Origin: an uncultured Chloroflexia bacterium
GTDB taxonomy: Bacteria > Chloroflexota > Limnocylindria > QHBO01
DNA: 64,000 nucleotides
Direction: 5' to 3'
Assembly (NCBI GenBank): GCA_963773695.1
Contig: CAVZCE010000015.1
Coordinates: 46,744 to 110,743, forward strand
Shown here: piece by piece, positions 44,206-59,080 of the stretch
Position numbering within the stretch: position 1 is the first letter of the stretch
How the letters are laid out: each line of letters opens with the position of its first letter
The notes under the pieces: model-generated
What the model saw: the letters and a program-made list of their open reading frames with translations, nothing else
What the model was told of the DNA's origin: nothing
Databases searched by the model: none
Made by a program: the position numbers and the translations under genes

Positions 44206-44249
44206 CGGTCGGGGCGTAGCGCAGTCTGGTAGCGCACCTGAATGGGGTT
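44206..44249 (+). repeat. Displaced 5' half of tRNA-Pro (attL-like); 44 bp identical to 59037-59080
   Basis: The stretch cggtcGGGGCGTAGCGCAGTCTGGTAGCGCACCTGAATGGGGTT is identical at both sites; identity ends in the anticodon loop (t at 44250 versus c at 59081). Confidence 0.8.
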
Positions 44250-44618
44250 TCCGTGGGACCTTTGCGCTGTTGCCAAGACCAATCGGGGCACGGCTTGGGC
44301 ACGCGCGATTCATCGATTCAGGATGTGCAACCGAGCTTGCGGAGCCCGCCCACAGTGTGGCCAATCTGCCCGACCGCAGCTCCGTGCCGCGTAGCCCGCG
44401 ACCAAAGTACGCCCGCCGGGGGATGTTCTCGGGCGAGCCGCTTTCCTAGGATCGTGCCTGTCGCTCATTTATTTGAGCGCAGTTGGCCGGGTGGTGCGAG
44501 ATGCCTGGTTTGGGGCCAGGCGGCGGCATATCATGCAGAGGGCACACACCTGGCGCGCGATCGACCATCGACCGATGAGCGCACGGACTCGGCCAGTCGG
44601 GCACGCCATGGCACCGCG

Positions 44619-47600
44619 TTGCTGGTGGCCAGCATCGTCGTCTTCAACGCCGTCCTGTTGTCGGCCACGGTTGGGGCGCCACGCGCCGCGGCCATCACCG
44701 ATGGCTTCTACGCGGCATCCGACGACGGCCCCTTGATGAACGTGCCGCTCTTCGACTCGCTGAGGAGCACCCTGTGGCCCTGCCAATCGGACATGGCCCG
44801 CCGCAACCTGAGCGAGGTCGACACCTCCACCCGCAACCTCGATGAGGACGCGGGTATCTCCATCGCCGCCGGCAGCCGCGGCTGCCAGCTGATCAACAAC
44901 TCGGTGCAGGGCACCAGCTGGTACGGCTGGATGTATCCCGACACCACCTACGGCGTGGCCGACTTCAACGGCAGCGGCTCGGGAACCGGCGATCCGCGTC
45001 ACGCGGACCTCTGCCATACGCCGAGCCCGACCTCGATGGGCGCCGGCAAGGTCCGGCTGCTGGGTGAGCTGGAGAAGCCGACCACCGGGCTGGCCTTCAA
45101 CGCCAGCATCACCCTCAGCGCCAAGGTGGGCCAATGCGTATCGGAGTCGACCCTGGCCTCGTACAGCATTGCCTCCATCTCGGCCCAGACCAGCGCCGCG
45201 ACGCAGGCCTTCGACGTCACCGTCGCCATCCCCGACGGGACCCGCGACCTGGCGCTCACCATCCGGGGCGGGGACCCGCGCGACACCGGCGCCGGCAACG
45301 GCGTCTACGTCCACTACCTGCGCATGTACGCCTCCCTGGGCGCCGACGCCCCGGACCCCTCCCTACCCATGCTCCCCGCACAGCTGCGCGGCACGGGATC
45401 AGGCACCTATGGCAACGACCCCTCGCGCCGCGAGGCGGAGCCGGTCAACACTGCGACCGGCAACTACGTCCACCAAGACACCGACCTCGCCCTGCCCGGC
45501 CTCGGCCTGCCCGTGGCCGTCACCCGCACCTACAACTCCCTCGACACCGACACTGGTCCCCTGGGGGTGGGCTGGAGCTTCGGGTACGCCATGCACCTCG
45601 ATGCGGGCAGCGACGGCTCGCTGACCTTCAGCGCCGAGGACGGGGCCCAGTACGTCTTTGCCCCCGACGGCTCGGGCGGCTTCCTGCGCCCGGCAGGGAC
45701 GTACACCGACCTGGTGCAGCTTGAGGACGGCAGCTACCAGCTCACCCGGCGTGACGGGGTGATCGACGCCTTCGACAGCGCCGGGCTACTCGCCAGCCAG
45801 ACCGACCGCAATGGCAACCAGCTGACCTTCGACTACACCAGCGGCCGGCTGACGACCATTACCGACACCGTGGGCCGCACCGTCAGCCTGGGCTACGACG
45901 GCTCGGGGCGGCTCAGCGAGCTCGACGCACCCTTGAGCCGCAGTGTGACCTACACCTACGACGGCTCTGGCCGCCTGGAGACGGTCACCGACCTGGCGGG
46001 TGAGACGACCACCTACGCCTACGACACCTCCAGCCGTCTGACCACCATCACCGACGCCAACGGCCACGTGGTGGTCACCAACGAGTACGGCACCGACGGC
46101 CGGGTCAGCGCCCAGACCGACGCCAACGACAACACCTCGACCTTCAGCTGGGACCCCGACACCGGCACCGCGGCCTACACCGACGCCGCGGGGCATGCGT
46201 GGGCCGACGTCTACCTCGGCAACGTGCTGCTCAGCCACAGCGACCCGCTGGGCAACACCACCACCTACACCTACGACGCCAACTTCAACCGAGCCAGCGT
46301 CACCGACCCCACCGGCCACACCACGACCTACACCTATGACGCCAACTCGAACCTGCTAAGCCGCACCGCGCCAGCCCCGCTCTCGTATGAAGAGTCGTGG
46401 ACCTACACCGCCCTCAACGACGTGGCCAGCTACACCGACGGGCGTGACCACACCACCACCTACACCTACGACACCGCCGGCAATCTGACCGTGGTCACCC
46501 AGCCCGGCGACATCGAGGCCGACTACGGGCGCGACCCTAACGGCACCGGGCTGCTGGTGAGCACCACCGATCCGCGCGGCAAGACCACCGCCTACACCTA
46601 CGACGCCGACGCCAACCTGGCCAGTGTCACCAGCCCCACCGGCGACGAGACGACCTATGCCTACGACGCTGCCGGACGGCGGATCAGCATGGTCGATCCG
46701 CGCGGCAACGCCAGTGGCGCCGATCCCGGCGACTACACCACCGCCTACACCTACGACGACGCCGACCGCCTGACCAGCGTCAGCGATCCCCTCGACCACA
46801 CCACGGGCTACGAGTACGACCCGGTCGGCAACCGCACCAGCGTCACCGACCCCAACGACCACACCACGGCCTACGCCTACGACCCCGCCAACCACCTGGC
46901 CGGCGTCACCGATGCCGCTGACGAGACCACCTGCTACGAGTACGACGAGGTCGGCAACCTCGTCTCACGCACCGACGCCAACGACCACACCACCACCTAC
47001 GCCTACGACCACGCCAACCGCCTGACGGGCGTCACCGATCCGCTCGACCGTTCCACCGCGATCACCTACGACGGTGCCGGCAACCCGGAGACCCGCACCG
47101 ACGCCACCGGGCAGACCACGACCTACACCTACGACGCCCTCAACCGGGTGACGGCCATCGACTATGAGGACACCGCCACCCCCGACGTGGCCTTCGCCTA
47201 CGACGCCAACGGCAACCAGACCGCGATGACCGACGGCGGCGGCACCCAGACGGCAACCTTCGATGACCTCGACCGACTGACCGGGGTGACTCGCGGCTCC
47301 GATGCGTTCGCCTACGGCTACGACGACGCGGGCAACCTCACTAGCCGCACCTACCCCGACGCCACCGAGGTCGCCTATACCTACGACGATTCGGGCCTGA
47401 TGAGTTCGGTGACCACCGACAGCGCCACGACCACCTACGCCTACGATGAGGCCGGCAACCTGACTTCCATCGGCCTGCCCAATGGGGTCGACGAGTCGCG
47501 CACCTACGACCCCGTCGGGAGGCTGTCCACCATTCACGCCGCGGGCAGCGCGGGGACCCTCACCGATCTGGCCTACACCTACGACCCGAGCGGCAACATC

Positions 47601-57977: not shown

Positions 57978-58934
57978 TCAGAGGCGATCTCCGGGCGACA
58001 ACTGGCGGTATGCGGCGCGAGCGCGCTCATCGGCGGTGCTCGCCGCGTAGCGGGCCAGCATCTCGCGGCTGCGCCACCCGGCCAGGCGCATGACGTCGCC
58101 CTCCTGCATGCCGGCCTCCAGCATCGAGTGGGCCCAAGTGTGACGGAAGGCGTGGGCGAACAGCTGCGGGACCCCGGCCTGCTCGCCGCGGCGGCGAAGG
58201 GCCTGCAGCAGCCCGTTCTCGCTCAGCGGGCCGCGCCGTCCCAGCCACAGCTGGGGCAGGTGGGCGTAGGGGTGGGTGTAGCGGGCGCGCAGGTAGCGGC
58301 CCAGGGCCTGGGCGGTCTTGACCCCGTACGGGCAGGCCCGCACCCGGTTGCCCTTGCCGGTGACCACGGCCAAATTGGCATCGAGGTCGACGTCGCCTTG
58401 CACCTCGCCGCCGGGCAGCAACCGTGCCTGCAGCCCGGCGCACTCAGCGCGGCGCATGCCGGTGTCGAGCAGGAGGCGGATGAGCGCGGTATCGCGCAGC
58501 TCCTCGAAGCCGGCGCCGCGGCAGGCGCGCAGCAGGGCCCGCAGCTGGTCTGGGGTCAAGACCGGCACCGGCTTGGCCTGGGGGCGGGGAGCGGGGATGG
58601 TCGCCAGCGGGTTGGCGGCCAGCAGGCCCTCGCCCAGCGCCCAGCGGCAGAAGGCCTTGAGGCCGTTGTAGCGGTTGAAGCGGGTCCCGTCGCTGTTGCC
58701 GGCCTCGGCCAGGGCGATGAGCCAGTCGCGAACCAAGTCGGTGTCCACGGCCGCCACCGAAGCTACGCCCCGGCCTTCGGCGAAGCGGGTGAAGCGGGCC
58801 AGCGCCTCGAGGTAGGTCTCCACGGTGCGCGGGCTCTTGCTGGCGGCGCGCAGGTCCCGGGCGAAGTGCCCGGCGGCGGCGCGTAGCGTAAACTGCGGGC
58901 TGAGTCGCTGGCTGGCCAACGGCGAAGACCTCAT
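57978..58934 (-). CDS. Tyrosine-type site-specific integrase (island integrase)
   Basis: 318 aa; N-terminal SAM-like core-binding domain; catalytic R…HxxR…Y (…[16 protein letters not shown]…LARY); lies immediately beside the tRNA-Pro attachment site. Confidence 0.85.
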
Positions 58935-59036
58935 GAAAGCGGCATGCGGAAGGACCGAATCATGATGTGTAGCGACGCTGTAGTCAACTTGCAGCTTGGC
59001 TCAGAAGCGGTTTAGGCGCTGGATCTGAGCACGAAA

Positions 59037-59080
59037 CGGTCGGGGCGTAGCGCAGTCTGGTAGCGCACCTGAATGGGGTT
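59037..59080 (+). repeat. attR-side 44 bp direct repeat (5' half of the functional tRNA-Pro), identical to 44206-44249
   Basis: Exact 44/44 identity by eye; island length between the repeats is about 14.8 kb. Confidence 0.8.

Follow-up and report, generated by a model that had tools for sequence, protein, structure and literature searches.

The 64-kb window analysed here (contig CAVZCE010000015.1; the window is the whole stretch of DNA considered, and all coordinates are positions within it) contains a tRNA-Pro(GGG) gene, the gene of a tyrosine integrase beside it and, far upstream, a second copy of the 5' half of the same tRNA gene. What lies between the two copies, 44250-59036, is very probably an integrative island that was inserted into the anticodon loop of tRNA-Pro by the integrase, whereby the attachment site of the element (attP) would have borne the 5' half of the tRNA gene. 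Sister and relative loci are labelled L001, L002 and so on.

The tRNA-Pro gene, its displaced half and the integrase

The only tRNA gene that ARAGORN finds in the window is tRNA-Pro(GGG) at 59041-59117 on the plus strand, where the Rfam tRNA model scores 65.4 bits. A repeat finder equates 44203-44249 with 59034-59080 over 47 nucleotides (nt) with 1 mismatch (family D16). Read by eye, the perfect block covers 44206-44249 and 59037-59080, both on the plus strand, and is identical in 44 of 44 positions. It consists of 4 bp of 5' flank (CGGT) and nt 1-40 of tRNA-Pro. The displaced half (44210-44249) has the direct orientation, lies on the same strand upstream of the intact gene and begins with the acceptor stem, takes in the whole anticodon loop (ATGGGGT, nt 33-39) and ends with the 3' anticodon stem's first base. 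Forty-four identical bases within 64 kb are far beyond chance, and blastn-short across the window yielded no further tRNA fragment of more than 12 nt. The initial annotation had described just this: a perfect 44 bp copy at 44206-44249 and an intact tRNA at 59041-59117. ARAGORN, Rfam and the repeat finder agree with its coordinates. We call the upstream copy the attL core and the downstream one the attR core; the former is the displaced host copy, the latter is derived from the element.

The integrase gene occupies 57978-58934 on the minus strand and encodes a protein of 318 amino acids (aa). Pfam recognises Phage_integrase (PF00589; E 4.5e-24) and Phage_int_SAM_1 (PF02899) in it, which confirms the earlier assignment as a tyrosine integrase adjoining the tRNA gene. 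A SAM-like core-binding domain (residues 24-103) is followed by the catalytic domain (residues 125-301), and there is no N-terminal arm-binding domain. R161, K194, H261, R264, W287 and Y296 are invariant in an alignment of 33 sequences. In a phmmer search of PDB, Xer proteins and the integrase of phage Brujita came up, as distant matches only. The protein is not XerC or XerD: the respective NCBIfam models score 136.6 (TIGR02224, cut-off 335.15) and 112.1 bits (TIGR02225, cut-off 329.6).

The arrangement agrees with what the Islander database takes as a tRNA island (PMC4383910). An intact tRNA gene marks one end, a direct 5' fragment lies upstream of it, an integrase is encoded inside, and the length of 14.8 kb falls between the limits of 2 and 200 kb.

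The empty and the occupied site of a sister lineage

A sister island was found by scanning species-representative genomes with the integrase. In L001 an integrase that is 91% identical to that of the window is encoded beside a tRNA-Pro(GGG) gene in the same divergent arrangement, and a second contig, L002, starts inside the same sister integrase gene. If the insertion sequence (IS) of the window is skipped, the sister loci are 84-90% identical in nucleotides to the island of the window. Beyond the tRNA gene, L001 shows no meaningful similarity to the right flank of the window, be it by blastn or by tblastx.

The corresponding empty site was reached through homologues of QueG. An orthologue with 76% identity to the QueG of the window is encoded, as an identical protein, on two contigs, L090 and L091. 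In L090, Der, GpsA and QueG are followed by the 5' half of the tRNA, an Rhs protein of 2272 aa, a 141 aa open reading frame (ORF), Replic_Relax, a 96 aa ORF and a winged helix-turn-helix (wHTH)-nucleotidyltransferase. In L091, QueG is followed by an intact tRNA-Pro(GGG) and by unrelated genes; this is the empty site. Over 3136 bp the two contigs agree at 99.9% of the positions, up to exactly nt 40 of the tRNA, where the agreement stops. The pieces can be joined: L090 equals L002 (100%), L001 has the integrase-side end of the island in common with it (99.7%) and continues into a host flank that is 98.4% identical to the right flank of L091. The sister lineage thus shows an occupied site with both junctions and an empty site, with the breakpoint as in the window, and this supports the integration model. 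The empty site, for which the initial annotation had advised searching related genomes, is thus found in the sister lineage, where L091 and L090 part at nt 40 of the tRNA; this is also the unoccupied site, broken at the att core, that Islander-type definitions look for.

Two other routes to an empty site led nowhere. The exact trypsin-like protease encoded left of the tRNA half turned up only on Logan contigs of about 1 kb, of which one breaks off after 30 nt of the repeat; a homologue with 76% identity (L088) sits in an unrelated neighbourhood, which implies that this protease family is multi-copy. The QueG orthologues of L089 and L092 are embedded in a differing order, QueG, DUF1015, a hydrolase and tRNA-Glu. 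In L089, which is from a member of Limnocylindria (QueG 78% identical), an Rhs/DUF6531 gene follows tRNA-Glu(CTC) at 13727-19336, where the syntenic L092 has unrelated genes; it may be another tRNA-associated Rhs island.

The host side of L001 shows a peculiarity of its own. An extra copy of the tRNA-Pro 3' end (nt 54-77) is found at 9735-9758, about 58 bp past the gene and inside an 82 bp insertion relative to L091, and a further one (nt 58-78) at 7859-7879, another 1.9 kb away. These copies suggest that other elements used the same tRNA at its 3' end and left scars or remnants behind.

The origin of the two tRNA halves and a likely mechanism

The flanks and the tRNA itself reveal which half came from where. 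Upstream of the displaced half, at 44184-44198 (plus strand), the window has TGTCGTACACTGCCC, which contains a TACACT hexamer resembling a -10 box. The same sequence precedes the tRNA in the empty site of the sister lineage (L091) and, in its occupied site (L090), the half tRNA, amid surroundings that have otherwise diverged. Because it is present in the empty site, it is host DNA, and it is a candidate for the native tRNA promoter. In contrast, the rebuilt tRNA is preceded by 33 bp (59008-59040) without a single difference from the sister island, which are, therefore, DNA of the element. The tRNA's 3' half is specific for the host, as can be seen from a compensatory pair in the T-stem: the window has GAAGG/CCTTT, the sister host GGAGG/CCTCT, and the tRNA of L001 carries the version of its own host. 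The gene at 59041-59117 is therefore a hybrid of an element-derived 5' half and a host-derived 3' half. That attP carried the 5' half and rebuilt the tRNA had already been proposed in the initial annotation; the origin of the flanks and the T-stem pair bear this out.

Integration is accordingly best pictured as follows. In the circular form, attP would consist of the integrase-proximal arm, a copy of nt -4 to +40 of tRNA-Pro(GGG) and, beyond it, another arm. The two-domain integrase would recombine this site with the tRNA-Pro gene of the host, the strands being exchanged at about nt 33-39. The 5' half of the host, still joined to the upstream region of the host, would be left at 44206-44249, from where it points into the Rhs cargo, and the 5' half brought by the element would be fused to the 3' half of the host to yield the intact tRNA at 59041-59117. 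Truncation of Replic_Relax, deletion of the wHTH-nucleotidyltransferase, insertion of an IS256 element with its intron and breakage of Rhs are later events of decay.

This sequence of events has consequences for transcription. As the DNA upstream of the rebuilt tRNA is that of the element, the tRNA depends on an upstream sequence supplied by the element, and the arm between integrase and tRNA (P, 58935-59040) must hold any promoter of the rebuilt gene; we infer that this promoter is element-borne. Within the arm, motifs that recur across the integrase family are found, and a promoter-like site, TTGACT-17-CATGAT at 58987-58959 on the minus strand, is directed toward the integrase gene. On the plus strand upstream of the rebuilt tRNA, the only fully conserved block is 59008-59040. 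A scan for consensus sigma-70 promoters at the displaced half and TGTCGTACACTGCCC gave no match; around both att sites, promoter and terminator scans yielded nothing on the strand of the tRNA, the integrase-directed site being the sole match. It is plausible that the displaced half is transcribed.

The integrase family and its choice of the tRNA half

Among the candidates scored, 2473 homologues of the integrase were found at E<=1e-10. A survey of the family was based on 80 metagenome loci plus genome loci, and the tRNA context was counted for 81 of them. In 56 of the 81 a tRNA gene lies about 120-250 bp upstream of the integrase start, and many tRNA identities are represented; in most of the remaining 25 the contig end cuts close to the start of the integrase gene. 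Relatives with 35-49% identity also occur in predicted viral contigs.

Both polarities are common in the family. The 5' end of the tRNA faces the integrase, as in the window, in 32 of the 56 loci, and the 3' end, the classical arrangement, in 24. If the loci are collapsed at 80% identity, the numbers become 18 (5'-type) versus 22 (3'-type). Six tRNA species (isoacceptors) are targeted in both polarities by different members of the family. In a neighbour-joining tree, polarity tracks the clades of the integrase: in the clade of the window integrase every mapped member is of the 5'-type, with Pro, His, Gly, Lys, Met or Ser as the tRNA, another large clade is of the 3'-type throughout, and in a third both types occur. 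This distribution shows that, in a large environmental family of integrases, the polarity of the half tRNA is a property of the clade.

Wherever distal fragments could be mapped, they were direct repeats. They comprise nt 1-40 in the window and nt 1-38 in L029, which is of the 5'-type as well, and nt 33-75, nt 28-75(+6) and nt 31-75 in the 3'-type loci L047, L054 and L055, respectively. The sole segment common to all of them is the anticodon loop. For this reason, the strands are probably exchanged within the anticodon loop (about nt 33-39), the positions of cleavage being deduced from the boundaries of the fragments. The anticodon-loop crossover of the initial annotation gains support in this way, since the distal fragments of all mapped relatives contain the loop and the breakpoint of the sister lineage is at nt 40.

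Between the core and the integrase gene, short motifs recur. In the 100-200 bp upstream of the integrase gene, 3'-type loci (among L005-L084) have two to three direct ACACnnTAACTGGAC-like copies and a unit of the form TTGCACAGCGCTC...GATAACT; in the 5'-type loci of the same set the unit reads TTCGTGCTCA...ATAACTG in the direction of the integrase gene. In L029 similar units are also found on the far arm. Those conserved beside the core appear to share the orientation of the integrase gene, and they may be a promoter, operators or accessory binding sites. One of them, TGAGCRYGAA, is located just upstream of the rebuilt tRNA in 16 of 31 loci of the 5'-type and was weighed as a tRNA promoter common to these loci. 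In the reading direction of the integrase gene, however, it aligns with the TTGCACAGCGCTC...GATAACT unit of the 3'-type loci, which makes it more likely that it is related to the integrase (promoter, operator or binding site) than that it is a tRNA promoter. [quoted passage not shown]

Cargo and decay of the island

The G+C content of the island is 0.69, that of the flanks 0.724-0.728, i.e., the island is lower by about 3.5 points. The identity with the sister island begins at the first base past the repeat (L090 11100-14602 corresponds to window 44183-47668, about 81%, with conserved blocks). The first about 280 bp, 44250-44531 (plus strand), are the second arm of the element (P') together with the leader ahead of Rhs; they are about 81% identical to the sister island, and a scan of them for terminators found no terminator-like site.

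The main cargo is an Rhs/YD-repeat toxin gene at 44532-48890 (plus strand), the start of which, at about 44532, we infer from the alignment with the intact Rhs of 2272 aa in the sister lineage. Within 44253-48890, Pfam finds RHS_repeat (PF05593; E 7.9e-99) and, N-terminally, DUF6531 (PF20148; E 1.9e-21). The frame is lost after a tandem duplication of about 620 bp at 47679-48926 with perfect copies at 47679-48196 and 48306-48822 (spacing 626-627 bp; families D5, D9 and D17), which could be genuine or an assembly artefact. Further Rhs C-terminal, PD40 and orphan cassette ORFs follow on the same strand at 49329-51368 and 51661-52908 (Pfam RHS_repeat, TEN_YD-shell, PD40), and tblastn with residues 1481-2107 and 1868-2087 of the sister Rhs yields matches within 49329-52908. 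With repeats, an N-terminal DUF6531 and downstream orphan cassettes, the locus has the make-up of an Rhs/YD polymorphic toxin locus; no C-terminal toxin and no immunity gene was recognised in it.

At 52717-53048 (minus strand) residues 1-109 of the 309 aa Replic_Relax protein of the sister island (Pfam PF13814) are preserved in two frames with 91-93% identity, according to tblastn. A small conserved gene at 53362-53583 (minus strand) matches 74 of the 96 aa of the sister ORF with 90.5% identity, and neither Pfam nor NCBIfam has a match to it. An IS256-family (Mutator) element with 22 bp terminal inverted repeats (I21) occupies 53638-57175 on the minus strand. Its transposase (Pfam Transposase_mut, NCBIfam transpos_IS256) is split by a group II intron, the reverse transcriptase/maturase of which is encoded at 54550-55965 (NCBIfam group_II_RT_mat, 300.2 bits; Pfam RVT_1) and the domain V/VI of which is matched by Rfam Intron_gpII at 54408-54506. 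As this IS is wholly absent from the sister island, it must have been inserted recently. At 57353-57595 (plus strand) the first about 81 aa of a wHTH-nucleotidyltransferase are left, 83% identical to the N-terminal part of the sister protein; the latter is complete with 226 aa and matches to HTH_20/MarR_2 and NTP_transf_2/Polbeta. About 790 bp that are present in this region of L001 are missing in the window. Just past the stop codon of the integrase gene, an 11 bp tandem repeat, GCGCGCCACCT, is present in about five copies (57900-57954; family D15); the sister lineage has two copies fewer (L002, about 650-690).

The content given in the initial annotation, an rhs toxin locus, a RepRel remnant and an IS carrying an intron, is borne out by Pfam, Rfam and tblastn. 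Its small winged-helix gene does exist, not as a whole gene, however, but as the mentioned piece of the wHTH-nucleotidyltransferase. By comparison with the sister island, the window copy is partly decayed: it has a truncated Replic_Relax, has lost most of the wHTH-nucleotidyltransferase region, has gained IS256 with its intron, and its Rhs is broken. Despite the decay, the integrase gene is intact and both att cores are perfect. The scanned ORFs of the island include no FtsK-like transfer gene, no Xis and no intact replication gene. Classification as an actinomycete integrative and conjugative element (AICE), which combines integrase, replication and FtsK-like transfer, fails accordingly, since the only related gene is the truncated Replic_Relax and none of the ORFs scanned is a transfer gene.

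The cargo of the mapped islands may also be compared for its direction. Under the displaced half, 5'-type islands have Rhs, as here, or SMODS, Schlafen/AlbA_2 and an AbiEii-like nucleotidyltransferase, as in L029. Of the 5'-type, two independent islands have been mapped, that of the window together with its sister and that of L029, and in both the cargo has the same direction as the displaced half; of the 3'-type, three have been mapped, and most of their genes point the way the rebuilt tRNA does. The directions are consistent with a host tRNA promoter feeding the cargo, a suggestion that we make with little confidence, the sample of mapped islands being too small for a conclusion.

Host and flanking genes

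The flanks had initially been taken as actinobacterial. The closest homologues of the integrase and of QueG are, however, named Candidatus Limnocylindria or Chloroflexota, and the related contigs are metagenome-assembled genomes of Chloroflexia. The host thus belongs to the Chloroflexota, class Ca. Limnocylindria. The claim that the flanks are syntenic holds for the left side, where Der, GpsA and QueG have the same order in the sister lineage. It does not hold for the right side: the lack of similarity to the flank of the sister island, already mentioned, means that synteny is not conserved there.

Between QueG and the tRNA half, the left flank contains a c-di-GMP-II-GCG riboswitch and the gene of a trypsin-like protease. 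The aptamer at 43120-43203 (plus strand; RF03170, 56 bits versus a gathering threshold of 47.9) is located directly upstream of the gene of this secreted protease (43225-44061), and the unit of the two is absent from the same place in the sister lineage. The right flank comprises a gene for an F420H2-dependent reductase, a DinB-family gene and one for an Rsm22-like methyltransferase. The F420H2-dependent quinone reductase gene (59142-59796, minus strand) is split into two overlapping frames by an apparent frameshift. It may be a pseudogene or the result of an assembly indel, and this bears on the trust that can be placed in the other "broken" genes of the window.

Alternative explanations

Some observations weigh against the integration model as outlined. 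The consensus promoter scan of the plus strand of 58935-59040 found none, which leaves the transcription of the rebuilt tRNA unexplained. No circular junction sequence was detected: an exact search of viral_contigs for the attP junction had no match. For the lineage of the window itself an empty site was not found, the closest Logan contigs being uninformative since they stop 30 nt into the repeat. In relatives, motifs recur on both arms, and for this reason the att site is perhaps not strictly arm-less; with possible accessory binding sites to either side of the core, a simple, arm-less site is not established. Finally, the decay of the island and the frameshifts, be they real or sequencing errors, mean that it may or may not still be mobile.

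The last point leads to the most serious alternative, i.e., that the island did arrive as proposed and is now an immobile relic, a fixed Rhs locus in which integrase and att sites have merely not yet been degraded. We consider this a realistic possibility, yet one toward which the balance does not quite tip. A Replic_Relax gene cut at residue 109 and frameshifted, the deleted wHTH-nucleotidyltransferase, the inserted IS256 with its intron and the broken Rhs frame all fit a relic, and so does the failure to find an excised form by the exact junction search in viral_contigs. On the other hand, the integrase ORF is of full length with all catalytic residues, the att cores are identical in 44 of 44 positions, and integrase and att sites suffice for excision. 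With an intact integrase gene and both cores, the copy may still be able to excise. In the sister lineage, occupied and empty sites on contigs that are 99.9% identical imply a recent gain or loss there. Some of the frameshifts in the island, moreover, may be assembly errors, because the flanking F420H2-dependent reductase gene is frameshifted, too.

It is very improbable that the recombinase is a housekeeping Xer-type enzyme or otherwise unrelated to the repeat, and that the half tRNA arose from an IS- or Rhs-mediated rearrangement or is a misread 3'-type event. The protein does have the size and architecture of Xer, its best NCBIfam matches are XerC and XerD, and an IS as well as numerous Rhs repeats are found in the island. 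The XerC/XerD scores are far below the curated cut-offs, however (137 versus 335 bits). Its homologues are encoded 120-250 bp from tRNA genes in 56/81 loci, with matching distal half-tRNA repeats, the sister island has the same junctions without having the IS, and a duplicated 5' half upstream of the tRNA cannot be generated by a 3'-type event.

An assembly duplication or chimera as the source of the 44 bp repeat is hardly credible, for even if the window is apparently a metagenome-assembled contig and short-read Logan contigs break within the repeat, both types of junction recur, broken at the very same nucleotide, in assemblies made independently from another lineage, and at each junction the DNA toward the island has its homologue in the sister island and that toward the host in host DNA.

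Relation to known systems and significance

Integration into tRNA genes with crossover in the anticodon loop is classical. pSAM2 and other AICEs target tRNA-Pro at the anticodon loop, with an att block that starts there, and contain a plasmid-like replication/relaxation gene. The island of the window resembles them in the tRNA-Pro target, the att block at the anticodon loop and the replication/relaxation-type gene. It differs in that pSAM2 carries the 3' half, whereas the present island carries the 5' half.

The reverse orientation is known as well. The Islander database contains 159 islands with a 5' tDNA fragment versus 3760 with a 3' fragment (159/3919, about 4%), and in 2083 of its islands attP is centred on the anticodon (PMC4383910). 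As a rule, it is the 3' part of the tRNA that attP bears; the use of the 5'-distal part occurs "considerably less frequently", as stated in a passage of PMC6563490 that cites Zhao and Williams (2002) and archaeal cases. With the known 5'-fragment islands, as far as they are characterised in these sources, the present one shares the intact tRNA at one end, the direct 5' fragment upstream, the tyrosine integrase inside, the promoter-proximal attP and the anticodon-centred crossover. It is unlike them in its Chloroflexota host and its two-domain integrase, a comparison that reaches the element of 2002 via its citation and the Islander counts only. The 5' orientation is, thus, uncommon yet already catalogued, and the island of the window adds a new example.

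Two-domain, "simple" tyrosine recombinases that mobilise elements belong chiefly to the IntBrujita and IntKX subgroups (Smyshlyaev et al. 2021, PMC8138268). The Brujita-type simple integrases are similar to the present one in having about 318 aa, a core-binding and a catalytic domain and no arm-binding domain, and in being encoded by the element. The likeness concerns the domain layout; in sequence, Brujita gp33 (PDB 5vfz) is a distant match (phmmer E 1.5e-8) and no better than Xer. A further difference is that the core is flanked by repeated motifs in relatives of the window integrase. Mycobacteriophages of Clusters K4 and L share with the island a crossover in the anticodon-loop region and the departure from the usual 3'-half attP (Guerrero-Bustamante and Hatfull 2024, PMC10865867). 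Their way of saving the tRNA is different: only about 10 bp are shared with attB, the tRNA gene is destroyed, a whole replacement gene is supplied, and the integrases are of the arm-binding kind (PMC10865867), whereas the tRNA of the window is rebuilt from the 5' half borne by the element.

The island represents a cleanly mapped case, for which both an occupied and an empty site are at hand, of a minority class, the tRNA islands by which the promoter-proximal half of the target gene is replaced, and it comes from a poorly studied phylum. The orientation is inherited within an integrase clade and not a one-off. This makes two questions testable, how the element supplies a working tRNA promoter and whether the stranded host promoter drives the cargo. 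There is also a practical side: island finders and annotators that expect 3' fragments only would misplace the boundaries of such islands in genomes of Chloroflexota and Actinomycetota.

A wider view can be offered as a speculation, which we consider rather unlikely to hold in full. The window integrase might stand for a large and mostly undescribed family of two-domain integrases of Chloroflexota and Actinomycetota soil bacteria, with relatives in predicted viral contigs, that all exchange strands in anticodon loops. The half of the tRNA carried would be a clade trait that has been switched several times, even for one tRNA species, and the clade carrying the 5' half would hand the host tRNA promoter to its cargo. 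If this were true, promoter capture by the cargo, and not chance, would account for the reversed orientation.

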